Source: an uncultured Candidatus Bathyarchaeia archaeon (GTDB lineage: Archaea > Thermoproteota > Bathyarchaeia > Bathyarchaeales > Bathycorpusculaceae). Taken from it: a stretch of DNA of 40,000 nt. The stretch lies in the NCBI GenBank assembly GCA_964434745.1, contig CAYSWL010000006.1, positions 6,700 through 46,699 of the forward strand, given 5' to 3'. Both the position numbers and the translations under genes were made by a program. The notes under the pieces are model-generated. The model searched no databases. It was given only the letters and a program-made list of their open reading frames with translations, and had not been told where the DNA came from. This document shows positions 11,070 to 38,368 of this stretch, piece after piece. The first letter of the stretch is position 1, and each line of letters starts with the position of its first letter.

Positions 11070-11626
11070 TTGTGTTCAATACTCCTTAGAATTTGACAGA
11101 CCCGCTCGTTAAGGGTATCTATAGTTTCATCATTTATTATAATATACTCTGATAGTGCAATAGCTTTGCCTATGCCAACACCCAATTCGCGCATATCGCG
11201 CTCATTAAAAGTTTCCCATGTTTTTGGGTCGTCACTTCTGCCTCGATTAGCAAGACGTTGAAATCTAGTATCAGGTGGAGCATGAACGGCAACTAGAACA
11301 AATTTTCCAAAATATTTTCTAAAAACTTCAACCTCAACAAAACTTCGAATCCCGTCAATTATTACCTTAGAAGCTTCTTTTGCAACTATTTTGGGAACAC
11401 ATTTTTCAGCTACAACCGTTTCTCCGCCCATAGTTCTTAGCTCTAACATCACTTTACCCACATTTACTGGGTTGAGCTCTAGTCCCCTTTTTGTTGTCTC
11501 TTCTCTAATAACATCACCCATACTAACAACAGCATAACCAGTACTCTGAACAGATTTTACAACCAAAGATTTGCCTGCACCGGGCATCCCAGTTAATCCA
11601 ATGACTAACTTATCAGTATTCAACAT
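11060..11626 (-). CDS. UPF0200 family P-loop nucleotide kinase-like protein
   Basis: 188 aa with the GLTGMPGAGKS Walker A motif. The conserved archaeal pairing with UPF0201 is present. Confidence 0.7.
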   Translation of the reverse strand: MLNTDKLVIGLTGMPGAGKSLVVKSVQSTGYAVVSMGDVIREETTKRGLELNPVNVGKVMLELRTMGGETVVAEKCVPKIVAKEASKVIIDGIRSFVEVEVFRKYFGKFVLVAVHAPPDTRFQRLANRGRSDDPKTWETFNERDMRELGVGIGKAIALSEYIIINDETIDTLNERVCQILRSIEHKWK

Positions 11627-11926
11627 AAAGCGACCTCTTACTTTTTACCATACTATATCAATAATTTAAAAGCATCCATAAGTAAACTACCAATCAACAA
11701 GATGTAAGAAGCTTAAAAAAACCGTAGATAAAAATGCAATTATTTCGCAATGCATAGAAAAAGAAAACATAATTGGTATTATAAAGAGCAGTAAAGCAGC
11801 CTAAGGATTCTTTCAAAGATTTCAACTAATTTTAAAAAAAATGACAGCACCTATTTTTGTTTTGGCAGCAAATTCTGAAAAAGACTTTATCAAGGGGAAC
11901 TAATAGAAGGTACTTGAGGTACTATA

Positions 11927-12493
11927 ATGTCTGAGCATGTGCGAGCCTTCTTGGCGTTTGATTTAGATAACGAGGAAGTAAAGAAAAAATTAGCTGAATT
12001 ACAACGTCTATTGGCTAATACTGGTGCTGATTTAAAACTTGTCGAACCAGAAAATATTCACATTACTATACGTTTTCTTGGAGATATTACACTTCGCATG
12101 GCAGACAAAATTTTTGAAGAAGTCGAAAAAATCCAGTTTAAACCGTTTATAGTAAAAATTGGCGGTATAGGAGTATTTCCCAACTTAAATTACCCACGTG
12201 TAGTATGGGCAGGCATAACTCAGGGAGCGACCCAACTTCAAAGTATCTTCACGCAACTCGAACCGAACTTACAACAATTAGGGTTTTCACCTGACCCAAA
12301 AGGTTTTAGTCCACACCTAACCATAGCAAGAGTCCGCTCAGCCCGGGGCAAACCGCAACTCATCAATTTTGTACAGAAAAATGCTCATTTTACCTTTGGC
12401 GAAATCAACGCAACAACTTTTCGTCTTAAGCGAAGTGAACTAACACCTCAGGGACCAATTTACTCAACACTTAAAGAGTATAGGCCACAGTAG
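11927..12493 (+). CDS. thpR: RNA 2',3'-cyclic phosphodiesterase (2H family, LigT/ThpR)
   Basis: 188 aa with two HxT/S motifs (HITIRFLG and HLTIARV) at the canonical spacing. Confidence 0.85.
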   Translation: MSEHVRAFLAFDLDNEEVKKKLAELQRLLANTGADLKLVEPENIHITIRFLGDITLRMADKIFEEVEKIQFKPFIVKIGGIGVFPNLNYPRVVWAGITQGATQLQSIFTQLEPNLQQLGFSPDPKGFSPHLTIARVRSARGKPQLINFVQKNAHFTFGEINATTFRLKRSELTPQGPIYSTLKEYRPQ

Positions 12494-12514
12494 CAGTAAC
12501 AAAGGGCAGTTGTA

Positions 12515-13948
12515 ATGCAATCTAGTAACATTGAAGAACTGGTAAGGCAGATACTGCAGGAGATAACACCAACAGAGGCTGAAATACATAAGATAACCTT
12601 GGTAGCTTCAGAGTTAGAACGTAAGGTTTTGTTAGCCTGCAAAGAATTCGGCGTTGATGCCACTGTGCGGGTAGAAGGATCCACAGCCAAAGATACTTGG
12701 CTTAAAGGAGATCTAGATATAGATGTTTTCATGAGGCTGCCTACATCTATTTCACGAAAAGCGTTAGGTGAAATTAGTCTTAAAATTGCTCGCAAAGCAA
12801 CCGAGGGGCACCAGCAAATTGAACGCTTCGCTGAACACCCTTACTTGGAGACCTATATTGAAGATATTCGTGTGAACATTGTGCCATGCTATGATGCTAC
12901 GCCAGGCGAATGGTTAAGCGCTACAGATCGCACACCGTTTCACACTAATTATATTAATGAACATATGGACAAGCAGATGCGTAGCGAGGTTCGCTTGTTA
13001 AAGAGGTTTATGAAAGGAATAGGTGTGTATGGAGCAGAGATTAAAATTGGCGGATTTAGCGGTTACCTCTGCGAGTTACTAACGCTTCATTATGGATCAT
13101 TTATTAATGTACTTGGAGATTTTTCTCATCATATACCAAAGCGGGTAATAGATATCGAAGGATACTATGAAGGTAGAGCAAGAGAAATTGAACTACTCTT
13201 TTCTGAGCCACTTGTGATAATTGATCCAGTTGACAAAGGACGCAATGTTGCTTCAGCTGTTCAACCTCAAAGGCTTCAAACTTTTACTGCTGCTAGCCAA
13301 GCATTTCTTAAAGACCCCAGTAGAAAATTTTTCTATCCACCTACAAGAAGTCCTCTGGATTTAAAAGCACTTATGCAAAAAATAAATGGCCATAGTTCAG
13401 ATTTTGTCTTTTTAACATTTGGCAAAATAGAAGCAGTTCCAGACATTTTATGGGGTCAATTATATAAAACGAAAAAGAGCTTGCGCAAACTCTTAGAGCT
13501 TAGTGATTTTGTTGTTTTACGTGATACAATATGGAACGAAGAGAATAAAGACTGCACCATTATGATTTTTGAGCTAGAACAACACATCTTGCCCATTACC
13601 AAAAAGCATTTAGGTCCACCTTTAACGCAAGAAAAAGAATGCGAACACTTTCTATCTAAATATGTTAAAAATGAAAAAGTAATATCTGGACCGTATTTAG
13701 AGAATGACCGATGGGTAGTCCAGTTACCGCGTAAATATAACGACGCTGTAGAACTATTCAATTTAAAATTAAAGACAGGTGGTAGAGATGTTGGTGTTGC
13801 AAGTTTAATTGCACAATCGATTCTCAAAAATTTTAAAATCGATATCAATACCGAAATAGCTACAATTTATAAGGAAAAACCAAGTTTTGCAATATTTTTA
13901 ACAGATTTTATAGATGGTAAACCATTTTGGCTTCAGTCAAATAATTAA
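12515..13948 (+). CDS. cca: CCA-adding tRNA nucleotidyltransferase, archaeal class I
   Basis: 477 aa with the GSTAKDTWLKGDLDIDVF nucleotidyltransferase motif and RTPFHTNY, at the length typical of archaeal Cca. Confidence 0.88.
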   Translation: MQSSNIEELVRQILQEITPTEAEIHKITLVASELERKVLLACKEFGVDATVRVEGSTAKDTWLKGDLDIDVFMRLPTSISRKALGEISLKIARKATEGHQQIERFAEHPYLETYIEDIRVNIVPCYDATPGEWLSATDRTPFHTNYINEHMDKQMRSEVRLLKRFMKGIGVYGAEIKIGGFSGYLCELLTLHYGSFINVLGDFSHHIPKRVIDIEGYYEGRAREIELLFSEPLVIIDPVDKGRNVASAVQPQRLQTFTAASQAFLKDPSRKFFYPPTRSPLDLKALMQKINGHSSDFVFLTFGKIEAVPDILWGQLYKTKKSLRKLLELSDFVVLRDTIWNEENKDCTIMIFELEQHILPITKKHLGPPLTQEKECEHFLSKYVKNEKVISGPYLENDRWVVQLPRKYNDAVELFNLKLKTGGRDVGVASLIAQSILKNFKIDINTEIATIYKEKPSFAIFLTDFIDGKPFWLQSNN

Positions 13949-28636: not shown

Positions 28637-28947
28637 TCCTGATTAATGAAACCTGTATAAATCATTCAGCGAGATTTATATTTTAAATCGTTCAGGTTAG
28701 TGTTTGCACATGTTTTTTTGGCATATTCTATAAATCTTCAAGCACAAACTGCAAGTATTGATTTTATTTAAATCCAATATGTGCAGAATACTTAACGTTG
28801 ATTGTTTACTTCTGATTAAGTCTTTATAGGAGTCTCTTAGTTCAATTGAAATTTATCCACTATTACAGTTGGAATTAATAAAAAGATTTTTTATGTGAAA
28901 ATTAGAAAAAGAGATTATCTTGTTTTTGGATGGTGAATTTATTTATC

Positions 28948-29276
28948 CATTAATTTTTTTATCATTTGCTCCTCTGCAGGTTGGGAATAAGCCTGTTTTC
29001 CATGGCAAAGTGACTATTTAAGCCTTAATTTGGGGCTATTTTTGTGGGGAAAGCTGTTTTTGGGCAGATTTTAAACAGTTTGTAACGTGAGCCCGCATGG
29101 CCGATAACGCCATTGCATGTATCAAACTTAAGCCTATGGGCATATGCACCCGGGCATACCGCCGAAGTGTTTTTGGCATGCATCCAAACATGCACACATA
29201 CACATAACAAGAAAGTACACTAAAACGTGCAAAATCCATGGAAAAAAGCCAAAAAATGCACCTATGCAACCCAAAA
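28948..29276. repeat. left terminal inverted repeat of the casposon
   Basis: 28948..29260 is the reverse complement of 37981..38293 with a single mismatch (28978 A versus G) by manual alignment. About 16 further bases match with decay. Confidence 0.9.
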
Positions 29277-29464
29277 AAGACCCTAAATGTGCCCAATTAC
29301 ATCTAACCAAATGAGATAGCCACTATATCCATATCTTAGGTGTAAGGCTTTGGCAGGGTTATAGGATATGCACAGTATTGATAAATATCTAACTGAAGGT
29401 TCAAATTTGGCTACCCTCATCAAGGTAACTTCAAGTCAAAATCAAAAAAAGAAAAAGAGGCGTG

Positions 29465-30550
29465 TTATTTTTTCCGCTTCTGCACTGCCATTATGCATAC
29501 GGAAGCGGCTACTATGATTGCTGCTGCTAACGCGATTATCAATGCATTTGTTGGGGTGCTTGCGTTATTTGCTGGTTGTGGCGAACCTATCGGCGCTGCT
29601 GCATTAGATGGAGTGCCATAGTGTGATGCCCAGTTGACTCCTGCAACTTCTCCCGTATCAGCCCATATGGCAACTTGAAGTTCAGTGATTCCTGCTGGAG
29701 ATTCTTTATCAAGCCCAAGAGATATGCCCCAAGCAGGATATAATGCATTGTTTCTTGGCTGCATCGTCAGTTCAGTGAGTATTGCATTTTCAGCTTTAGC
29801 CAAAATAAAGCCTGATATTGTTGCATTATTGTAGGTGATGGAATAGTTTTGTGCAGCGTTTTTGGCAATCTCTATAGCTTTTGTTTGGTCTATGTTAACA
29901 TCGAAGCTGCCTATCGGTTGGCGGTCCCAGAAGTCAGTAAACTTTACAAGACGGCCGTTGCTAAAGTCTAAAGCAACTGCATTGTATGTATTGTTTATGC
30001 CCTCAGGTGCTCTTGCCCAAGTAATTGATTGTCTGCTTTCCGTATCACTATTAGTTACTTCTAGTCGTGCTTCGCCAATTTGTGCTTTAGCAGATTCAGA
30101 TATGCCGCGAGTATTGATCGTGTCTCTCATGCTTTGCAGATATGAAGCATTTGAATAGCTCGTATACCTGTCAAGGGCATTTATTGCTTGGTCTTTAGTA
30201 GCTACATCGTTTTGTGTATATGCTGGTGGATTAGCTGATAATGAAAGTATTGAACAGGACCGTATGATATTGTCTTTAACTAGGCAAACTACTGAAACTG
30301 CGTCATCAGTGGAATTTAAGATGTAATTCTCAAGTTTATAGTCAGCTACCGCCCCAGTACTTTTCAATGTTATGCTATAGCGCGCTGTGTCTATTCCCAT
30401 CACATCTTTTAGGAAAGCCACAGCATTAGCGCTGCCATCAGTAACGTTTTGTAGCTCTGAGTGCACAGTGGGCACCTGCACAGCAGCAATAGATATAGCT
30501 AGCACAGCAAGGGCAATTATTGCAAAGTTTTTTACATTAAATTTGCTCAT
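29465..30550 (-). CDS. membrane-anchored surface protein with PepSY-like repeats (casposon cargo)
   Basis: Start taken at the ATG at 30550, preceded by AGGAG. It has a signal peptide MSKFNVKNFAIIALAVLAISIAAVQ. Its last module (DQTKAIEIAKNAAQNY...LQVAIWADTGEVAGV) fits the PepSY pattern, and a C-terminal TM helix ends in KRKK. Confidence 0.6.
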   Translation of the reverse strand: MSKFNVKNFAIIALAVLAISIAAVQVPTVHSELQNVTDGSANAVAFLKDVMGIDTARYSITLKSTGAVADYKLENYILNSTDDAVSVVCLVKDNIIRSCSILSLSANPPAYTQNDVATKDQAINALDRYTSYSNASYLQSMRDTINTRGISESAKAQIGEARLEVTNSDTESRQSITWARAPEGINNTYNAVALDFSNGRLVKFTDFWDRQPIGSFDVNIDQTKAIEIAKNAAQNYSITYNNATISGFILAKAENAILTELTMQPRNNALYPAWGISLGLDKESPAGITELQVAIWADTGEVAGVNWASHYGTPSNAAAPIGSPQPANNASTPTNALIIALAAAIIVAASVCIMAVQKRKK

Positions 30551-30563
30551 ATACAAGTCTCCT

Positions 30564-32177
30564 TTAAACATGTGGCAGATATACGGTCCCATCTCCATAA
30601 ACTCGTATTTTACTAGTTATCCAACTTGGGGGTTGTCCGTCGGCACCGTTCCACCATACTGTGTTTCCGTTGTCGCCGTTGTAGCTTGGGAAGGTATTGA
30701 AGCTAGAGTATCCTGATGCTTGTGATGCGGCGTCAATAGCTTGGTTTATGGTAAGCCCAACTGTTACAGCGTAGTGATAGAAGAACACTAGCCAGTGTTT
30801 GTATAGTTGGTTTGTGTTAGAAGGCGAGATGTATTGGCAAAGCATTGGAGAGGCACTGTTAAACGAAATAAAGCAATAACCGCTCCAATCATTGCCAGTG
30901 TATGCATTTGTGTTTGTAATTGCGCCATGTGTCCAGCAGTAAGGCATACCGTAAGGTGGATATGGAGAATTTGGTCCGCCTAGTGCTTCTCCGTTGCGAC
31001 ATACCCATAAGAAAACAAAGTGATGCCTGCGATTAACTATGTTGTCGTAAACGTCCTCATCCCATACCTTACCTACATCTCCTACTGGCGTACCAGCACC
31101 GTTTTCAGCAAATCCGTAGTGAGTGACGCCCTCTCTGGTCTCCCAACCGTTATGCCCTATGTAGAGAAATGTTGACTCAGGATAATCTGTGTCATCTTCA
31201 TAAATTCCACCGAGCATGTTTCCAACGGTTGAGTATGATCGACCAGCCTGCAGGTAGTTTTCTAAGCGGCCATACTCGAGTGTATTTGAAAACATTGAAA
31301 ATATGTCATCAGCAGCATCTATAACAGCCAGATTCGCAGTGCTAGTCGCAGGATTGCCAGATGCATACACTTCAATATCGTCAACGCAAACTGAATTGGA
31401 CCCTGCATCAGTTTGGTAGGCTATTCCGAATCCTGCAACGAGTGTATTTTGTGTCATGGTGCGAGTTTGCGTAGCTACAGGCGAACCGTCAATCAACAAC
31501 TGTGCCTGATTAGTTGTCAAGTCGCGTATTAGCTCAACTTCATACCAGTCGTCTTTGCTTGGAATTGAAGTGCTCTGAACCAAGTTTAAGCTGCCACCTA
31601 CAAAGGTCTCTAGTGTCCATCTATACGTGCCAGAGACTTTAGTTATTGATGCAACAACTTGGTTTTCCCATGAATTGCCCTGCAGATACATTATTTCGAG
31701 ACGTGATGAACTGTAAGGAATGTTAAGGTCCGTGAAATATACATGCGCAATGGCTCTAGCTTCTGCACTTGTAGGAAGATACTGATATATCTTATTTGAT
31801 GCTCCAGCAGTCGATGCTGTTGCTCTAGCGCTATAATATTCACTGGTATAATAATCATCTTCAAGGAAAGGTCCATCTACGCACCATTTATCTAGATTAT
31901 CTATTTCATCATAAATCACTTTATCGAGGGGTTCTTGATCGTTACCTGCATCTGAAGCATGTATTAAGCTAGCATAGCCCCAGCCGTTATTCCATCCGTA
32001 TGGGGTTATTGCTGCATTTGCTATTGGCAGTGATGGCAATGAAACTACCAAAGACATCGAAATCAAAAGCATACTAAACATAATTACATATTTTTTCTTT
32101 TTCTCTCTCCATTTTGCTAATTTGTTCTCTTTAAATCCATCAATTAGGACTAGGCGGTGACACGCCCTCCAAAGCAA
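30564..32177 (-). CDS. secreted protein with LamG/concanavalin-like domain and C-terminal gingipain (C25)-like putative cysteine peptidase domain (casposon cargo)
   Basis: It has a K-rich n-region, a hydrophobic core and an ANA-A cleavage-like site. The central region (YEVELIRD...LLIDGSPV...VCVDDIEVY) looks like a LamG jelly roll. The C-terminal YIGHNGWE...HHFVFLWVCRNGEA...VYGDGTVYLP resembles the His/Cys dyad context and terminal GDP block of clan CD C25 peptidases. The start is uncertain (TTG at 32177 or ATG at 32081). Confidence 0.55.
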   Translation of the reverse strand: MLWRACHRLVLIDGFKENKLAKWREKKKKYVIMFSMLLISMSLVVSLPSLPIANAAITPYGWNNGWGYASLIHASDAGNDQEPLDKVIYDEIDNLDKWCVDGPFLEDDYYTSEYYSARATASTAGASNKIYQYLPTSAEARAIAHVYFTDLNIPYSSSRLEIMYLQGNSWENQVVASITKVSGTYRWTLETFVGGSLNLVQSTSIPSKDDWYEVELIRDLTTNQAQLLIDGSPVATQTRTMTQNTLVAGFGIAYQTDAGSNSVCVDDIEVYASGNPATSTANLAVIDAADDIFSMFSNTLEYGRLENYLQAGRSYSTVGNMLGGIYEDDTDYPESTFLYIGHNGWETREGVTHYGFAENGAGTPVGDVGKVWDEDVYDNIVNRRHHFVFLWVCRNGEALGGPNSPYPPYGMPYCWTHGAITNTNAYTGNDWSGYCFISFNSASPMLCQYISPSNTNQLYKHWLVFFYHYAVTVGLTINQAIDAASQASGYSSFNTFPSYNGDNGNTVWWNGADGQPPSWITSKIRVYGDGTVYLPHV

Positions 32178-32465
32178 CCAGCCTTGGTATTCTTGGTTTA
32201 ATTATTTAGTACTCCTTAAAGCTAACAGTTTATGGGATAATCAAATAAACACAAAAGAACAATACAATGTGCTACTACAGACATAACTTTTGGAAGTTCC
32301 TTTGCAACACACTTTATCACTAAAAGCTTAAATAAAGACACCAGATGAAAGAATGCATCTGATTTGAAAATAGCGTGGAAACAATCTTAATCATTATCTG
32401 AAAGGCAAATACACACCGTCAGTTATCAAATCCGAATACTCCATAACTAGCGAGTTATAATTTAA

Positions 32466-33314
32466 CTAATTATAATAAAGTGTTTGACGCCTTTTGAGAA
32501 TATGTACTGTTAACCCACTTATCAACACTAATACGACAATAATTGCAGCAATTAGCATATGTGAACCTTCAAACGGTGTACTATCATCTGCTGGAGTTAA
32601 CGTAGGATGAGATGGCAAAGGTGTTAAGCTTGTCGATATTGAGGGCAATAAAGACGAAGATAAATTGGGGGCAGTCGTTGGGCTTGGAGTTGCTATTGGG
32701 CTGGGGCTGTTTTGCGCATGTTGGCTGTATTGGTAGTTTAGGTGCATGTTTCCGTAGGTGTCATTTGTCGGCACATTTGGCATATGCCCATCATATCGAA
32801 ACTCTCCACGAGTATAGAGCGCATCAAAAAACCTAGTAGCGTTAATCTGGGCTTTAGAAACTATCTCAGAATTTAACTCATAAAATATGCGCTCACCATC
32901 AAAAGATAAACTAATAACGTTAGGCATTCGGCTTAGATTAAAAGTGTCGCTATGCACTATGCCTGATTTTCTAGAAGAAAATAAGACCGTAAAATTGCCT
33001 TTTTCGGCAGAGATTTGAAATCCTGAATTGTCTGGTTCATGGGAGTAATTTCCTGAAACTATGAAAGGCGGGTCGCTTTGGTAATAGAAGCAAAACAGCA
33101 TAAAGAAGTCTCGGTCAGTAGGATAGGCAACTGAGCTAATATCTATGGTAACTGAGGTTACATTTGAGCTTAAGCTGTAAGTTTTTAACTCGTTATAAAA
33201 GAACTGCTCAATGCTAAGCGAAGAAGGGTTAACAACCGCACCAGCAATAGGCATAGCAAGCAACAGTGCAATTAGACAAACAGAAGCTATAGCTAAAGTA
33301 ACAGATTTATCCAT
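32466..33314 (-). CDS. membrane-anchored surface protein with Pro/Ser/Thr-rich stalk (casposon cargo)
   Basis: It has a signal peptide MDKSVTLAIASVCLIALLLAMPIAGA, many N-x-S/T sequons, a PSPIATPSPTTAPNLSSSLLPSISTSLTPLPSHPTLTP linker and a C-terminal TM helix followed by KRRQ. An alternative TTG start lies at 33326. Confidence 0.6.
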   Translation of the reverse strand: MDKSVTLAIASVCLIALLLAMPIAGAVVNPSSLSIEQFFYNELKTYSLSSNVTSVTIDISSVAYPTDRDFFMLFCFYYQSDPPFIVSGNYSHEPDNSGFQISAEKGNFTVLFSSRKSGIVHSDTFNLSRMPNVISLSFDGERIFYELNSEIVSKAQINATRFFDALYTRGEFRYDGHMPNVPTNDTYGNMHLNYQYSQHAQNSPSPIATPSPTTAPNLSSSLLPSISTSLTPLPSHPTLTPADDSTPFEGSHMLIAAIIVVLVLISGLTVHILKRRQTLYYN

Positions 33315-33430
33315 CCTGCTCACCAATCACTAAAGACACTAACAAAGCTACTTTTTATATGTACCTAGAAAACAACCTGTTCTGGCAAAAGAACGCCAAA
33401 AAGCAGCTTAACAGGTTAGTATGCATTACC

Positions 33431-33487
33431 TTGTCAGAGTGATCCACCTACTATAAAAGTCGCCCTGAAAGCAGAGTTACCTTTCAA
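33431..33487 (+). repeat. internal copy of a ~58-bp sequence also found just outside the right TIR
   Basis: ttgtcagagtgatccacct...ccctgaaagcagagttacctttca aligns by hand with 38311..38368 at about 46 of 58 positions, with one 1-nt indel. Confidence 0.7.
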
Positions 33488-33490
33488 GGC
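33462..33490 (-). terminator. stem-loop immediately downstream of polB (candidate terminator)
   Basis: A 10-bp stem (GCCCTGAAAG / CTTTCAAGGC, one mismatch) with a 9-nt loop. On the minus strand it is followed by ACTTTTAT, and it begins 8 nt after the polB stop. Confidence 0.35.
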
Positions 33491-33497
33491 GCCTAAA

Positions 33498-35390
33498 TTA
33501 TAGTAAGGTTGTATTTTGGCATTGCTGAGCTTTAATGTACGGGTCGCTTAGTTTTTGCCAATCTACATTCAGGGTTCTTTTTTGAAGCTCCATAACGCGC
33601 GGCTGCTTGTGCTGACGTATGGCTTCGCCAATTTTTACCATGTGCCGCGCTTCGTAGGTGAACTTATTTTCTGCAATCATTTCCAGCAGGGTATGAACAT
33701 TGCCTTGAAAACCATGTAATGCAAACTTGATAATGGCTTCGTCTTTGCCTACTTTCATTTTTGGCATTTCTTTAGCTAAGTAAGCGGGCAAATTGCCACA
33801 CTGCAAAATTTCATTTTGCCACTTAGGCGAAAACATCACATACACTTTTGGTCTTAACAGCAAAAGTAAGCCTTCAACTTCTTTTTTAAGCGCACCTAAC
33901 TCGGTACCTGTAGGAACACTCATTGTGGTCTTAAACGAATCCGTAGCGCAGTCAATGCCACTGTAGCGATGTAAATCTCTATGTAACATGGCACGGCCTT
34001 GGCTGGTAATCCATGCGCCCACATGAGGCAAATAAAGTCCGCCTGCACGATACCATTTTTCAATTTTAGCAACCCTGTGATTGGGTAAAACCTTAAAATC
34101 TTCAAGATTTTCACTTTCAGGGTCTAAAAGAGCCTGATAGGTTTTCCCATACAAGCTGTTAAGTGCTAATTTGGCTTGGGTATTTAGCGGCGAATTTTTA
34201 GGATACTTTTCTTTTTGCGCATAGAAGTGTTCAACGTAGGGTTTGAAGGGATTTTTCGATTCAGCATGCGGCACCCAAATATAGCCAAAAACTTTTGAGA
34301 GCTCCAACTCGTTGCAGCTAAGCGCCTCTTTTAACTCGCAGCTGCTTATAGGCACGTTAGAAATTTGCTCATCATTAGCGTAGTCCATTTTGCTTGTGCT
34401 TTTGATAATTATTGGATATGGGCATTGCTTTACATAACCGCTAATATAATAGAAACCTTCATGATCAGGGTCAAACCCATCAACAGGTTTCCATTCGCCT
34501 TTAGTTAAGCCTGGCAAATTAGCCATGCTGTATGGATAAAAGCTGTTGTAATCGTACATGGAAACGTTAGGAATTGGGATAGGGGTGTTAACGAAAACCT
34601 CCGCCCTGCCTCCATGTATGGTTGACTCGGCAAGTTTTCGTATGTGCTCTGGAATTTGTGGGATATTTTCTGTTAAGAAGCATTTTCTAAAAATTTTGCT
34701 GGCCAAATGAGGCGCAGAAACAGACAAAGTAACATCGTACTGCCAGTGCATATTAAGGATATATTTGGCTAACTCGTATTCGGCTTTGCTTTCATCAAAG
34801 CAGTAGCGATACAGCTCAGCCCATTCAGTTTTAGTTCTAGGCCTTTTTCCCTGCATAACACAGCTTGGGGGATTGCGTTTTTTGTATTTTAAATCCAAAG
34901 CTCTGCTTAGATCGTAGAGTTTTCCTCTAAGAAAGTTAGCACTATCGACCACTTTGATGGTGGCGTTGTTTTTAAGTGAAATTTGCGCAAACCAGCTTTT
35001 ATTAGTAAATAGCTTAATTTCTGCTATGGATTCTCGCGTTTCTGGGTCAGTCAGGTAGCGGAAAGTAGAGTTTTTGCGCAAAAAGAGCTCGTGTTCTACT
35101 TGGGTTAAGACTGCAGGTAAGTCAAAGGATAAGTTATGGCAAAAAAGTATGTGCGTATGCTTGTTGCTGTTACAATGCTTTAACAGGTAGCTAATGAACC
35201 TGTCCAGTACGGTATTTTTATCAACCTTAACGGTGCTAATGTGGTTGCCGTCGTTAAAGATTAGAAGATATGGCTCGCCGTAGTCTGTTTCAGTGTCGAA
35301 GGTGAAAAGCTTTATTCTTTGTGGAAAGCCGCGTTTTAAGGGTCTTATGCCATCGCGCAGGTATACAGGTAAAGCTACGTGTTTGTCCAT
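33498..35390 (-). CDS. polB: family B DNA polymerase (protein-primed type inferred)
   Basis: 630 aa with ExoI FDTETD, ExoII HNLSFDLPAV, a YCFDE ExoIII-like block, Pol motif A YDYNSFYPYSM, motif B KLALNSLYGK and motif C IDCATDSF. The compact size and casposon context suggest the pPolB type. Confidence 0.85.
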   Translation of the reverse strand: MDKHVALPVYLRDGIRPLKRGFPQRIKLFTFDTETDYGEPYLLIFNDGNHISTVKVDKNTVLDRFISYLLKHCNSNKHTHILFCHNLSFDLPAVLTQVEHELFLRKNSTFRYLTDPETRESIAEIKLFTNKSWFAQISLKNNATIKVVDSANFLRGKLYDLSRALDLKYKKRNPPSCVMQGKRPRTKTEWAELYRYCFDESKAEYELAKYILNMHWQYDVTLSVSAPHLASKIFRKCFLTENIPQIPEHIRKLAESTIHGGRAEVFVNTPIPIPNVSMYDYNSFYPYSMANLPGLTKGEWKPVDGFDPDHEGFYYISGYVKQCPYPIIIKSTSKMDYANDEQISNVPISSCELKEALSCNELELSKVFGYIWVPHAESKNPFKPYVEHFYAQKEKYPKNSPLNTQAKLALNSLYGKTYQALLDPESENLEDFKVLPNHRVAKIEKWYRAGGLYLPHVGAWITSQGRAMLHRDLHRYSGIDCATDSFKTTMSVPTGTELGALKKEVEGLLLLLRPKVYVMFSPKWQNEILQCGNLPAYLAKEMPKMKVGKDEAIIKFALHGFQGNVHTLLEMIAENKFTYEARHMVKIGEAIRQHKQPRVMELQKRTLNVDWQKLSDPYIKAQQCQNTTLL

Positions 35391-35396
35391 CTTTTT

Positions 35397-36080
35397 TTAT
35401 TCTCCTGTAGACGTAGATTTGCTTGGGGCTTTGGTTTTGAAGGCTTCAACTACTGGGGTGCCTGTTTGCATAAAAAAGTGCAGGGCAATGATGTCTATAA
35501 CTTCGATGTCTTTGTCTTGTAAGCTTAAGCTAAGCATATCTGAGATGTTTTCTGTGAAGAAGCGATAGATTTCTCTAAAGCTTACACCCTCTTCACGGTA
35601 ACTGTACTGGATAGGATATAAGAAAAATAGCTCTGATTCACGCCCTACATAATAAACAGTTACTGAGCTAAATCGGCCCTTTGGATTGGCCTGAATATCG
35701 CTGGCTACGCGGGTTTTTGGGTTTACGTATCGAGTGGGCGGGTAAGTGATGTTTTGGAAATGATAATGCTCATCGAGCTTGTCTATGTAGCGTCGGGTTG
35801 GAACCCATTCGTTTGGCTTTTTTAGCTTGGGTTTTGCTTTGATGCGCTTTTTAGGCCCGCGCCTGCGCTTACCCTTTAAGCCATATTGCGCTACGCGCCT
35901 GTTGACGGTGCGCGGCGAGACTTTAAAGTAAAATGCTATCCATTTGGTGGCTTTGCCTTGCCTAAGAAACTTTGCTAAAAGAGCCCTTGGTATATCGGTT
36001 TTTGTTGTTTTTTCTTTTGATTTTGTGTTTTTCTGCTCTGTCACAATTTTTCGCCTTAGTGGCATAATTAGCCAAAACAT
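35397..36080 (-). CDS. HTH-containing basic protein encoded directly upstream of polB (candidate regulator or terminal protein)
   Basis: 227 aa. The N-terminal KATKWIAFYFKVSPRTVNRRVAQYGL is a resolvase/IS-type HTH, followed by the highly basic KGKRRRGPKKRIKAKPKLKK. Its stop lies 6 nt before the polB start. Confidence 0.6.
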   Translation of the reverse strand: MFWLIMPLRRKIVTEQKNTKSKEKTTKTDIPRALLAKFLRQGKATKWIAFYFKVSPRTVNRRVAQYGLKGKRRRGPKKRIKAKPKLKKPNEWVPTRRYIDKLDEHYHFQNITYPPTRYVNPKTRVASDIQANPKGRFSSVTVYYVGRESELFFLYPIQYSYREEGVSFREIYRFFTENISDMLSLSLQDKDIEVIDIIALHFFMQTGTPVVEAFKTKAPSKSTSTGE

Positions 36081-36094
36081 TATTATGCCTTAAA

Positions 36095-36137
36095 GTCATA
36101 TGGGCATATGACATAAAACGCGTTTGGGGCATATGAC
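36095..36137. promoter_or_regulatory. operator-like repeats in the casposon divergent promoter: GTCATATG-GG-CATATGAC dyad plus a second GGGCATATGAC
   Basis: A perfect 8-bp inverted repeat lies at 36095..36112 and a direct repeat of GGGCATATGAC at 36102..36112 and 36127..36137. The whole is flanked symmetrically by CCTTAAAG (36088..36095) and CTTTAAGG (36146..36153). Confidence 0.5.
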
Positions 36138-36160
36138 CTAAACGGCTTTAAGGTGATACT

Positions 36161-36844
36161 TTGCCCAAAAAGATTGAAAACCCGCTAAGACAAGGTCTAC
36201 CATCACGAATCTACTACTACTCATTTGCGAAGCCCATAAACGGGAATAGTATAGCCAGAGCAGTCTACAAACCAAAAGGTAGACCCGAAACCGCAAAAAT
36301 ATATCCAACAGCCAAAAAGATGGTTGAGGGGGGCTTACTAACTGTAGCTGACAAAAAGTATCAATCAAGGCCAGAAAAACTCGTTGAAGAAATCAAAAAA
36401 GAGCTAACAGATAAGAAAATAACGCTAACCGATAGCGATAAGAAACGTGTATTGAAGCTCTTGCAGTGCAGGTTCTTTAAAGAAATCATAGCCTCCGAAA
36501 TCGAAAAAGAGCCAAAAAACCGCAAGCCTCAAGATATTGACGCAGCCCAGCAAATAAGCAGTATTCTTGCCATTACCTGCATTCCGATATATCAGCAGTT
36601 TAGGCAAGAAGAAAAGGAAATAGGAGCAATGTATGCGCATGAAAAAACCAAATTCATCGGCTATATAGACCAAGAGCCATTCAAAGAAACTACAACACAA
36701 GACCCTATAACGGAGTTTTTGTTTTATCTTCAGCCCAGGCTTGCTTCTAAGCTGGTGAGGCTGCTGCCAGCAGATTTGCCCCAAGTGTGGGATTCTTTTG
36801 AAGAAGTGTTAAAGAAAATTAGCACAGAGGCAAATAAGCCATGA
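36161..36844 (+). CDS. casposon hypothetical protein, possible N-terminal winged-helix domain, translationally coupled to cas1
   Basis: 227 aa with a TTG start. The N-terminal ~60 aa (SIARAVYKPKGRPETAKIYPTAKKMVEGGLL) resemble a wHTH. Its stop overlaps the cas1 start (ATGA). Confidence 0.5.
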   Translation: MPKKIENPLRQGLPSRIYYYSFAKPINGNSIARAVYKPKGRPETAKIYPTAKKMVEGGLLTVADKKYQSRPEKLVEEIKKELTDKKITLTDSDKKRVLKLLQCRFFKEIIASEIEKEPKNRKPQDIDAAQQISSILAITCIPIYQQFRQEEKEIGAMYAHEKTKFIGYIDQEPFKETTTQDPITEFLFYLQPRLASKLVRLLPADLPQVWDSFEEVLKKISTEANKP

Positions 36845-37887
36845 GCGTAGGTAAATTAATCGTTAAAGATTTTGGGCAAACTATCGGTGTTGATAGGGAT
36901 AATTTTGTAGTAAAATCTGATGGACAGGTTAAGAGCAAAATTCCATTCTACAAAGTAAATGAGATAGTTGTTGCCAGCAAAAATGCAATAACAACTGATG
37001 CTTTGCTTTGGGCAAGCATATACAATGTAGATGTGCTATTTGCCATGCACAATGGCAAGCCCTTAGCGTTCTTAAACTCAATGAAAGACAAAGCAAACGT
37101 CGAAGTCAGGTTAAACCAATTTCGCGCCTACGAAAGCTCCAAAGGATTAGAAATTGCTAAGTCTATTTTGCTTAAGAAAATTGACAACGAAGAAGCACTG
37201 CTAAAACACCTTGGGCTCAAATGCTACTCTGAATGCACTAAGCTGCCTTCGATAGAAACGATAGCAAACTTGAAAGCAGAAAAAATGACCCAGCAACTTA
37301 GGCTTAAATTACAAGTTGCTGAAGAAGCCTTTACCCGCCACTTTTACAAAGAAATCTTTCCTTTGTTCCCAAAATGGCTACAGGTAAGCAACCGCAAGGC
37401 AAGAAACGCCACCGAACCAATGAACAACCTTCTAAACATTAGCTACGAATTGCTGGAATGGAAAATCATCAAAGCGGCAGTAAAGTCAAAATTGGAGCCT
37501 GACCTTGGTTTCTTACATAGTCTCCAAAAGGGTAAGCCTTCATTGGTTTGTGATTTAACTGAACCTTTCAGACCTTATGTTATTAATTTCTTGTTGGGGC
37601 ATGCAAAGAAGCTTAAGCAAAAAGATTTTCGCAAAGCCTTCGTTAAAGATAGGTACCCAAGATACTTTCTCACACATGAAGCTACTTGGCAGCTAATTGA
37701 GAGCATTAACTTGCAGTTGTTTGAAGCTTATGTTCCACTGCAAAGAAACCGCAAGCATGGCAGGCGCATGCAATTTGAAACCTTCCTCGATGAATTTGTA
37801 AGCGAAGTAGCGCAATATATCAACAACACTAAACCGCTAATGCCAACAACTACTTTTCCCCAATATGCATTCTTTAGCACACGCTAA
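36841..37887 (+). CDS. cas1: Cas1 integrase (casposase)
   Basis: 348 aa with Cas1 hallmark blocks: AEEAFTRHFY (Glu), EPMNNLLNISYELL and GFLHSLQKGKPSLVCDLTEPFRP (His and Asp). No cas2, cas4 or CRISPR array is adjacent, and the gene ends ~80 bp from the right TIR. Confidence 0.9.
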   Translation: MSVGKLIVKDFGQTIGVDRDNFVVKSDGQVKSKIPFYKVNEIVVASKNAITTDALLWASIYNVDVLFAMHNGKPLAFLNSMKDKANVEVRLNQFRAYESSKGLEIAKSILLKKIDNEEALLKHLGLKCYSECTKLPSIETIANLKAEKMTQQLRLKLQVAEEAFTRHFYKEIFPLFPKWLQVSNRKARNATEPMNNLLNISYELLEWKIIKAAVKSKLEPDLGFLHSLQKGKPSLVCDLTEPFRPYVINFLLGHAKKLKQKDFRKAFVKDRYPRYFLTHEATWQLIESINLQLFEAYVPLQRNRKHGRRMQFETFLDEFVSEVAQYINNTKPLMPTTTFPQYAFFSTR

Positions 37888-37964
37888 CCCTCCGCCAATT
37901 TGGCTGCAGGCAATTTATGGGCATGCACACGCTAATGCATTTTTGATGTTGCAAATGAATGCAT

Positions 37965-38293
37965 ATTTGGGTTGCCTGGGTGCATTTTTTGGCTTTTTTC
38001 CATGGATTTTGCACGTTTTAGTGTACTTTCTTGTTATGTGTATGTGTGCATGTTTGGATGCATGCCAAAAACACTTCGGCGGTATGCCCGGGTGCATATG
38101 CCCATAGGCTTAAGTTTGATACATGCAATGGCGTTATCGGCCATGCGGGCTCACGTTACAAACTGTTTAAAATCTGCCCAAAAACAGCTTTCCCCACAAA
38201 AATAGCCCCAAATTAAGGCTTAAATAGTCACTTTGCCATGGAAAACAGGCTTATTCCCAACCCGCAGAGGAGCAAATGATAAAAAAATTAATG
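37965..38293. repeat. right terminal inverted repeat of the casposon
   Basis: Reverse complement of 28948..29276. The outer 313 bp are identical except for one position. Confidence 0.9.
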
Positions 38294-38310
38294 TCTAAAT
38301 TAAATAGGCT

Positions 38311-38368
38311 TTGCCAGAGTGACCCACCTGCCTCAATAAGTTACCCTGAAAGCAGAATTACCTCTCAG
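38311..38368 (+). repeat. flanking copy of the ~58-bp sequence repeated inside the casposon
   Basis: ttgccagagtgacccacct...ccctgaaagcagaattacctctcag begins 18 nt outside the right TIR and aligns with 33431..33487. Confidence 0.7.

Follow-up and report, generated by a model that had tools for sequence, protein, structure and literature searches.

Casposons, the presumed ancestors of the CRISPR adaptation machinery, have been described as compact carriers of DNA-handling genes. The closest described relatives of the element considered here are the family 1 casposons of the Thaumarchaeota (NitAR1-C1, NitNF5-C1/C2, NitEve-C1, and NitDev-C1/C2), which have a compact Cas1, a family B DNA polymerase of the protein-primed type (PolB; PF03175), a gene directly upstream of polB, terminal inverted repeats (TIRs), and variable element-specific genes (Krupovic et al. 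2014, 2019). In this report, we describe a locus with all of these features in a 40,000-nucleotide (nt) stretch of contig CAYSWL010000006.1 from an uncultured Bathyarchaeia archaeon (hereafter "the window"). A casposon at positions 28938-38303 encloses, between its left TIR and polB, a segment with three genes for predicted surface proteins, which we call g1, g2, and g3. Our overall reading, to which we give a probability of roughly 55%, is that an intact casposon here encloses 4.2 kb of cellular-type DNA, including a surface peptidase operon (g2-g1) and an orphan gene (g3).

The published cargo of casposons consists of nucleases, methyltransferases, and helix-turn-helix (HTH) proteins, as the first-pass annotation of the window had stated, and there is also one small "uncharacterized membrane protein". 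Family 1 cargo also includes many hypothetical proteins, and cases of tandem insertion have been described for the family (Krupovic et al. 2014, 2019). The present locus differs from family 1 in several respects: the host belongs to the Bathyarchaeia and not to the Nitrososphaeria; the TIRs are 338 nt rather than 13-68 nt, i.e., about five or more times longer; the terminal sequence lacks the C6 motif; no target-site duplication (TSD) is seen, in contrast to TSDs of 11-27 nt; the insertion site is not ef-2; and the enclosed genes encode surface proteins, whereas family 1 carries OLD, HNH, NERD, Cas4, and HEPN nucleases or regulators.

Mobile elements with accessory genes are ordinary in general. 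What is unusual here is the casposon in a new host lineage, its very long TIRs, and the captured cellular surface operon. As far as we have checked, a surface peptidase operon is new as casposon content, and we found no more than one passing mention in the literature that links casposons with the Bathyarchaeota. The layout recalls composite transposons and end-skipping, because a cellular operon lies between two transposon ends with hints of extra element copies nearby; unlike composite transposons, it involves a Cas1 casposase and a self-synthesizing element, and no second full copy is visible. If our reading is correct, casposons of the protein-primed PolB type extend beyond the ammonia-oxidising thaumarchaea into the Bathyarchaeia, and a complete cellular surface operon between the ends would mean that casposons can acquire ordinary host functions, as composite transposons do. 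The features of the element are as follows.

28938-38303, whole casposon, with Cas1, protein-primed PolB, and TIRs
28938-29275, TIR-L, the cargo-side end, 338-nt inverted repeat
29465-30550 (open reading frame, ORF, to 30598), minus strand, g1, membrane-anchored protein with a predicted tandem-PepSY fold, 361 amino acids (aa) from M17
30564-32081 (ORF to 32177), minus strand, g2, predicted secreted protein with a jelly-roll and a His/Cys domain, 505 aa from M33
32466-33314 (ORF to 33326), minus strand, g3, orphan type-I membrane protein, 282 aa from M5
33498-35390, minus strand, polB, matching PF03175 (DNA_pol_B_2) and a PHROG DNA polymerase
35397-36080, minus strand, orf227a, directly upstream of polB, candidate terminal protein or HTH protein
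36161-36844, plus strand, orf227b, an ORF call that overlaps the start of cas1
36841-37887, plus strand, Cas1 casposase, with PF01867, TIGR00287, and PDB matches
37966-38303, TIR-R, the Cas1-side end, 338-nt inverted repeat

The casposon core

Cas1 is the 348-aa product of 36841-37887. It matches PF01867 of Pfam with an E value of 7.6e-51 over model positions 1-279 of 283 and TIGR00287 of NCBIfam with an E value of 1.3e-49, and its PDB matches include chain 6opm_A, deposited as CRISPR-associated endonuclease Cas1. The Cas1 domain covers residues 6-287, other Pfam or NCBIfam domains are absent, and about 60 C-terminal residues have no assigned domain. PolB, from a 630-aa ORF, matches PF03175 (the organellar and viral, protein-primed type; E 4.8e-19) and a PHROG DNA polymerase (E 3e-25, positions 17-577 of 629). 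The two TIR arms are 98% complementary over 338 nt; in a global alignment they are perfect at 28948-29262 except for one mismatch, which corresponds to 99.7% identity across 315 nt. No CRISPR-type tandem-repeat array is present in the 40-kb window. Cas1, a protein-primed PolB, and TIRs in the absence of such an array therefore make 28938-38303 a casposon. Among the hallmarks of the superfamily, we see a Cas1 without an associated array, a family B polymerase of the element's own near cas1, and TIRs, and the TSD is missing; two of the hallmarks of family 1, a protein-primed PolB and a compact Cas1 without an HTH or Zn-binding fusion, are also seen. Scans of the window for tRNA genes and Rfam families were negative, so a tRNA target is not involved.

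A related element was found in a scan of metagenomes, on two contigs (L051/L052; numbers with L denote the retrieved loci), with identities of 62% for Cas1, 58% for PolB, and 59% for orf227a. It is the only related casposon found, and both contigs are too short to reach the cargo side. Among the genomes of 185,579 species (one genome per species) there was no close relative of Cas1, and a search of viral contigs returned no relatives of PolB. The outermost 30 nt or so of the TIR are also present in L052 (4437-4469) and read ...GAGGAGyAAATGATAAAAAAwTTAAT; the likeness of TIR-R to this terminus stops near 38303-38307, which suggests that the shared end is the recognition end of the casposase. 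The gene upstream of polB in family 1 has been proposed to encode the terminal protein (Krupovic et al. 2014), and orf227a occupies the equivalent position. Further marks of family 1 are a Cas1 within the family 1 clade, a thaumarchaeal host, and three small conserved genes that it shares with the Nitrosopumilus elements (arCOG14992 and others); for these genes, the window offers the positional analogy of orf227a. Its HTH-type matches are weak: phrog_30671 (E 2.4e-5), the N-terminus of IS630 (E 0.048), and the Streptomyces terminal protein Tpg (E 0.064). No family in Pfam, NCBIfam, PADLOC, or PHROGs matched orf227b, which was not detected in L051/L052 either. With Cas1, PolB, two accessory ORFs in conserved positions, and 338-nt TIRs, the casposon appears to be intact.

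Host and insertion site

When identical copies of the Cas1 protein were looked up, five metagenome contigs with the same element at 99.9% identity were retrieved. Four of the five (L001-L004), i.e., all assemblies that span this part, contain g1-g3, again at 99.9% identity. The gene of the left flank, which encodes a protein with an apurinic/apyrimidinic (AP) endonuclease fold, has relatives at 48-72% identity on 24 genome contigs, mostly labelled Bathyarchaeia or Bathyarchaeota. These 24 relatives keep the gene order PRPP (phosphoribosyl pyrophosphate) synthase, methyltransferase, RNase Z, and AP-endonuclease, and the PRPP synthase reaches 90% identity. Because the flanking genes are similar to, and syntenic with, Bathyarchaeia loci, the host is placed by sequence as a Bathyarchaeia archaeon; a thaumarchaeal host was considered and is ruled out by these relatives.

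The orthologues whose presence in relatives lacking the casposon would have marked g1-g3 as ordinary residents of this position were not found: homologues of g1, g2, g3, polB, cas1, and r191 (a gene of the right flank) are all missing within 10 kb in each of the 24 loci. The 24 relatives are, however, not close ones, and in every one of them synteny breaks off on this side of the AP-endonuclease gene. Beside that gene, the closest relative has genes for PstS-like, PyrI, nitroreductase, and FeoB proteins. Exact look-ups of both flanking genes gave no empty site; every contig enters a TIR.

The genes between the left terminal repeat and polB

The claim that three genes lie on one strand between the left TIR and polB was borne out, since minus-strand ORFs fill 29465-33326 and polB follows at 33498-35390. 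All three products also have the proposed signal peptides, each with an N-terminal hydrophobic segment and an AXA-type cleavage site (VHS|E in g1 counted from M17, ANA|A in g2 from M33, and AGA|V in g3 from M5), and the hydrophobic segments are kept in the homologues of g1 and g2. The two products predicted to end in a transmembrane (TM) helix with a basic tail are g1 (QKRKK) and g3 (KRRQTLYYN); g2 has no TM helix. We also considered whether these tails are archaeosortase-type sorting signals and rejected this, as the alignment of the g1 family has no conserved PGF-like motif before the TM helix.

A Pro/Ser/Thr stalk is present in g3 at about residues 200-245. The many N-glycosylation sequons said to accompany it come down to a modest enrichment, with seven observed versus 3.3 expected (P=0.04); g1 has seven versus 4.6, which is not significant. 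Conversely, g2 has no N-X-S/T sequon at all, versus 5.7 expected from its composition (P=0.0015). Several homologues of g2 are likewise poor in sequons. The proposal that the segment resembles the element in composition, and not the host, holds for the total GC content (cargo 0.423, core 0.411, host 0.384), with the excess mostly at codon position 2; at third codon positions (GC3) the cargo is only intermediate.

Finally, the three genes are not the single module that had been proposed. As described below, g2 and g1 make up a two-gene cassette that is conserved and cellular in origin, and g3 is an unrelated orphan: its sole match among 5.8 billion proteins is itself; no family in Pfam, NCBIfam, PHROGs, or PADLOC matches it; and it has no similarity to r191 or to the neighbours of other cassettes. 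From its sequence, g3 is probably a lineage-specific, stalked, glycosylated membrane protein. In L002, a 1-nt deletion in a run of five Gs (window position 32667) truncates it to 229 aa and removes the TM anchor. Decay, phase variation, and a sequencing error in the homopolymer are the candidate causes; g3 may be decaying.

The g2-g1 cassette in other archaea

The same search of 5.8 billion proteins returned 17 homologues of g2 and 13 of g1. With a single exception, the genomic contexts examined have a g1 homologue (29-47% identity) directly behind the g2 homologue, either adjacent to it or overlapping it (L017, L019, L021, L022-24, and L054). In the remaining context (L053), the g2 homologue lies among genes for a tRNA synthetase and an M24 peptidase, and only short ORFs follow, with no intact g1 seen. 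The neighbours of the cassettes include genes for topoisomerase VI, aIF2, the proteasome, the exosome, and ribosomal protein P1; one cassette lies between the topoisomerase VI genes and those for RLI, the proteasome, and the exosome, and another adjoins the genes for ribosomal protein P1 and phosphoglucose isomerase. No Cas1, PolB, TIR-like sequence, or long inverted repeat was found near these other cassettes. Thus, g2-g1 occurs in other archaea as a chromosomal cassette independent of any casposon, in several cases in core contexts.

Two observations tie the genes to each other. In the window, a Shine-Dalgarno-like GGAG comes right after the g2 stop codon and the ATG of g1 follows 9 nt on, so the sequence marks g2-g1 as a translationally coupled operon. 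Moreover, 29 of a set of 160 g2-family proteins have a full g1-like region (E down to 1e-82) N-terminal to the g2-like domain within one polypeptide; an exhaustive profile search placed the whole family at 715 representative clusters. These gene fusions are strong evidence from sequence that g1 and g2 work together. Large members of the family add PKD, InlB-repeat, PEGA, dockerin, CBM, FG-GAP, and LamG modules, all of which are extracellular. The pair leads to a large family, so far unannotated, whose members are probably extracellular His/Cys enzymes that have PepSY partners; it is a candidate for biochemistry and occurs in archaea thought to live on detrital protein.

Genes for Kelch-type beta-propellers were also observed at or near the cassette in three unrelated contexts, and their product may be a third functional partner that is missing from the casposon copy:

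L019 4058-5143, Kelch gene about 5 kb from the cassette
L022-L024 about 11205-12581, Kelch gene adjacent to the cassette
L053 8837-9088, Kelch gene fragment near the g2 homologue

In a further protein, P0029 (L025 8001-9302), a TM segment joins an ArsR-type HTH domain (PF01022/PF12840) at the N-terminus to a g1-like PepSY ectodomain, which gives the protein the look of a one-component transmembrane regulator that uses the same sensor-like module.

The products of g1 and g2

The AlphaFold2 model of g1 (mean confidence score, pLDDT, 80; about 85-97 over residues 40-310) has three alpha/beta modules, a disordered low-confidence linker, and a C-terminal helix. In Foldseek comparisons it resembles the C-terminal region of YpeB, which has three PepSY domains (5boi; E 9.5e-9), and the propeptide of vibriolysin MCP-02 (3nqy_A; E 1.4e-5). 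On the basis of the model, the ectodomain has a tandem PepSY alpha/beta fold, like the M4 propeptides and Bacillus YpeB. The Pfam PepSY model PF03413 was not matched, the best E value being 0.29 for one of 12 family members. The motif WADTG is invariant across the 13 g1 homologues. PepSY modules accompany and restrain a secreted hydrolase, namely the protease itself in the M4 family and SleB in the case of YpeB. YpeB, which works with a partner enzyme, is a separate membrane-anchored protein, and so is g1. The differences from FTP/PepSY systems are that the partner of g1 has a His/Cys domain and is not a metalloprotease or a lytic transglycosylase, that the anchor of g1 is C-terminal, and that its sequence does not reach the PepSY model of Pfam.

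In the model of g2 (pLDDT 80.5), residues 60-240 or so form a jelly-roll that matches concanavalin A (ConA)-like lectin and LamG folds in Foldseek (E 6e-8 and weaker, probability 1.0); a structure search of BFVD gave matches to the jelly-roll only. Because most g2 homologues lack it, the jelly-roll is an insertion. In the other domain, which is of alpha/beta type, Cys361 is invariant in an alignment of 77 sequences and His310 is present in at least 90% of the sequences of both alignments. His310 lies in YIGHNG and Cys361 in FVFLWVCRNG (family motifs hhhYxGHG and FVFLWxCxxG). In the model, both residues stand at the C-terminus of a beta strand, and His comes before Cys. By sequence and model, this is the clan CD arrangement, in which the His is followed by Gly.

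We compared the profile of the 77-member g2 family, by hhalign, with the gingipain RgpB, whose reference sequence was taken from the PDB (1cvr_A, 4ief_B). A single weak alignment (P 0.013-0.017, probability about 3%) places His310 on His211 (YTGHG) and Cys361 on Cys244 (DVACVNGD). Its score of 24.5 was reached by none of 300 shuffles (mean 12.9, standard deviation 2.2, maximum 21.9). BLASTP of g2 against RgpB gave nothing significant, and searches of PDB profiles with the g2 family gave spurious matches only. Among about 11 sub-threshold Pfam matches of the 77 members, two, Peptidase_C14 (E 0.074) and Raptor_N (E 0.087), are families with a caspase fold. We consider it likely but unproven that the His/Cys domain is a very divergent gingipain-like cysteine peptidase (clan CD, C25-like). 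Like the gingipains RgpB and Kgp, g2 is predicted to be secreted, has the order His...Cys in GHG and xC(x)NG motifs that follow hydrophobic strands, and has accessory beta-sandwich domains. Gingipains also have an inhibitory pro-domain, which is present with RgpB in the complex 4ief. In contrast to gingipains, the jelly-roll of g2 is inserted inside the putative catalytic domain, and what is presumed to be the pro-domain has a PepSY fold and belongs to a second protein that is anchored in the membrane.

A likely mechanism can be proposed from these likenesses. After export of g2 through its predicted Sec-type signal peptide, g1 would sit in the membrane with the PepSY ectodomain outside and act in trans as a membrane-tethered pro-domain, i.e., as a chaperone, an inhibitor, or a docking site that confines the activity of g2 to the cell surface. 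This role is suggested because 29 fusions join a g1-like module to a g2-like domain, and by the analogy with PepSY propeptides and YpeB. The jelly-roll may bind substrate or glycan, and the likely role of the pair would be to degrade or process extracellular or surface proteins. Exported C25-type peptidases are found in the Bathyarchaeota and Thermoprofundales and dominate the predicted secreted peptidases of sediments rich in them (PMC6752024), and for this reason a nutritional role, which might benefit the host, is the simplest reading by analogy. That the casposon is a vehicle that captures and spreads surface proteolysis in the Bathyarchaeia, with g2/g1 as representatives of a widespread gingipain-related family (the 715 clusters) whose PepSY pro-domain works in trans, is a tentative extension that we think will probably not hold in full. 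A bolder version would have the surface module serve the capsid-less element itself, by excluding rivals or helping cell-to-cell transfer.

Cargo, enclosed residents, or passengers

Under our overall reading, the element would have gained 4.2 kb of cellular-type DNA between the left TIR and polB. In favour of cargo, near-identical TIRs enclose the genes, the relatives have none of them at this position, and the GC content of the genes is above the host range. The first-pass annotation went further and argued that the genes travel with the casposon; a single insertion site, no detectable TSD, and signs of local rearrangement do not carry the claim that far, and joint mobilisation may be suspected at most. 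Enclosure of DNA by rearrangement is the usual route of cargo gain in transposons. The signs of rearrangement involve the following features.

33431-33486, plus strand, copy A of a 57-nt repeat, at the polB/cargo boundary, 81% identical to copy B
38311-38367, plus strand, copy B of the repeat, outside TIR-R, 81% identical to copy A
L002 9092-13133 (which continues the window past 40000) and L010/L011 3715-3744, region right of the element, with a third TIR copy and an insertion sequence (IS)

A number of observations weigh against our reading, and several of them would be expected if g1-g3 were resident or earlier-inserted DNA that a rearrangement had enclosed between casposon ends, either by recombination or deletion between tandem or neighbouring copies or by the use of a distant left TIR after loss of the one on the polB side; the unit may then never have transposed. 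No direct repeat adjoins the termini: the best 12-mer candidate matches at 10/12 positions, lies about 45 nt from the left end, and is equalled in 24 of 200 shuffles (12%). The 57-nt repeat (direct orientation, 81% identity, E 1.4e-6) has one copy 12 nt past the polB stop codon, exactly at the boundary of core and cargo, and the other 4-8 nt outside TIR-R, with no further copies across all retrieved loci. A third copy of the Cas1-proximal 72 nt plus TIR, 92% identical, lies about 4.5 kb to the right, behind r191, the gene of a 329-aa protein (r329), and an IS of the DDE family (DDE_Tnp_1). Relative to the flanks, the assemblies show the casposon in both orientations: the Cas1-side TIR joins the r191 flank in L002 (where a run of Ns intervenes), in L009, and in the window, and it joins the AP-endonuclease flank in L001, L003, and L005. 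Either recombination between the 338-nt TIRs has truly flipped the element, or the assembler made a choice over a perfect 315-nt repeat. No second insertion site is known, all other occurrences of the cassette are chromosomal, and the GC3 of the cargo (0.354) falls between those of host (0.281, standard deviation 0.033, maximum 0.341) and core (0.427), nearer the host maximum. On the other hand, the 24 relatives without the genes at this position, the 99.7% identity of the TIR arms across 315 nt, and GC and GC3 values that are still above nearly all host genes speak for cargo. Enclosure of residents would also still yield a TIR-bounded unit that the casposase could in principle move, so that this alternative concerns the origin of the unit more than its present status. 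We rate it as the strongest competitor, though one that is probably wrong.

The region of the third TIR copy may be the remnant of a second, tandem casposon, and copy B may be a subterminal remnant of the same decayed element. In such a history, the second element would have decayed and its left TIR, which would have formed a palindrome with the right TIR of the first element, would have been deleted; this deletion would remove the middle TSD and leave the subterminal segment of the second element as copy B. It would follow that copy A ancestrally lay beside the left TIR and that g1-g3 were inserted between the two. We infer this history from the repeats, and it would account for the absent TSD, the 57-nt repeats, and the third TIR copy together.

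The functional half of our reading, a surface peptidase operon, also has points against it. The probability of the hhalign alignment to RgpB is low, as given above; human legumain (sequence verified) and caspase-3 gave no signal, so a generic clan CD similarity is not detectable and the in-register match is with the gingipain only; and the His/Cys domain has no match at threshold in Pfam (including Peptidase_C25), NCBIfam, or PDB sequences. Three of the four polymorphisms in g2 are non-synonymous, including C403W, and the truncated g3 (protein cluster P0018) occurs on three contigs. The last two facts, together with the lack of homologues of g3, are what one would see if the genes were functionally irrelevant, decaying hitch-hikers. 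Nevertheless, g1 and g2 are both of full length and keep every residue that is invariant in their families, the frameshift in the G5 run could be a sequencing error, and four single-nucleotide polymorphisms are far too few to infer selection, and we therefore think decay of the whole segment unlikely.

The first-pass annotation had instead suggested that envelope remodelling excludes viruses or competing mobile elements, or aids adhesion, and thereby stabilises the casposon. In its favour are the predicted surface exposure of all three products, the lectin-like jelly-roll of g2, of a kind common in phage receptor-binding proteins, the fact that a surface protease could in principle trim receptors, and the further pair of secreted-protein genes (r191 and r329) that adjoins the element. 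It fares poorly in the searches, however: for g1-g3, PADLOC gave no defence family at E<=0.1, and PHROGs and NCBIfam gave no matches. Moreover, the g2-g1 cassette lies in housekeeping neighbourhoods and not in defence islands or mobile elements, and no related casposon with g2-g1 is known. What the evidence favours is an extracellular peptidase that has a PepSY partner, rather than exclusion, which we regard as the least probable of these explanations and very unlikely.

Neighbouring loci

In addition to the casposon, several features of the flanks and of the syntenic loci were recorded. The products of r191 and of the gene for the 329-aa protein both have signal peptides, and neither has homologues in the relatives. 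In five Bathyarchaeia relatives (L028, L034, L037, L041, and L047), the last 50 or so codons of the methyltransferase gene are duplicated beside RNase Z, with the full gene about 1.2-4.7 kb from the duplicated fragment; in L032, a separate case, there is the fragment only. A duplicated gene end of this type is the signature of an element integrated in the 3' end of the gene, two genes from the casposon site. In L028, the insert has genes for a PQQ-like beta-propeller protein of 919 aa and for a TrmB regulator.

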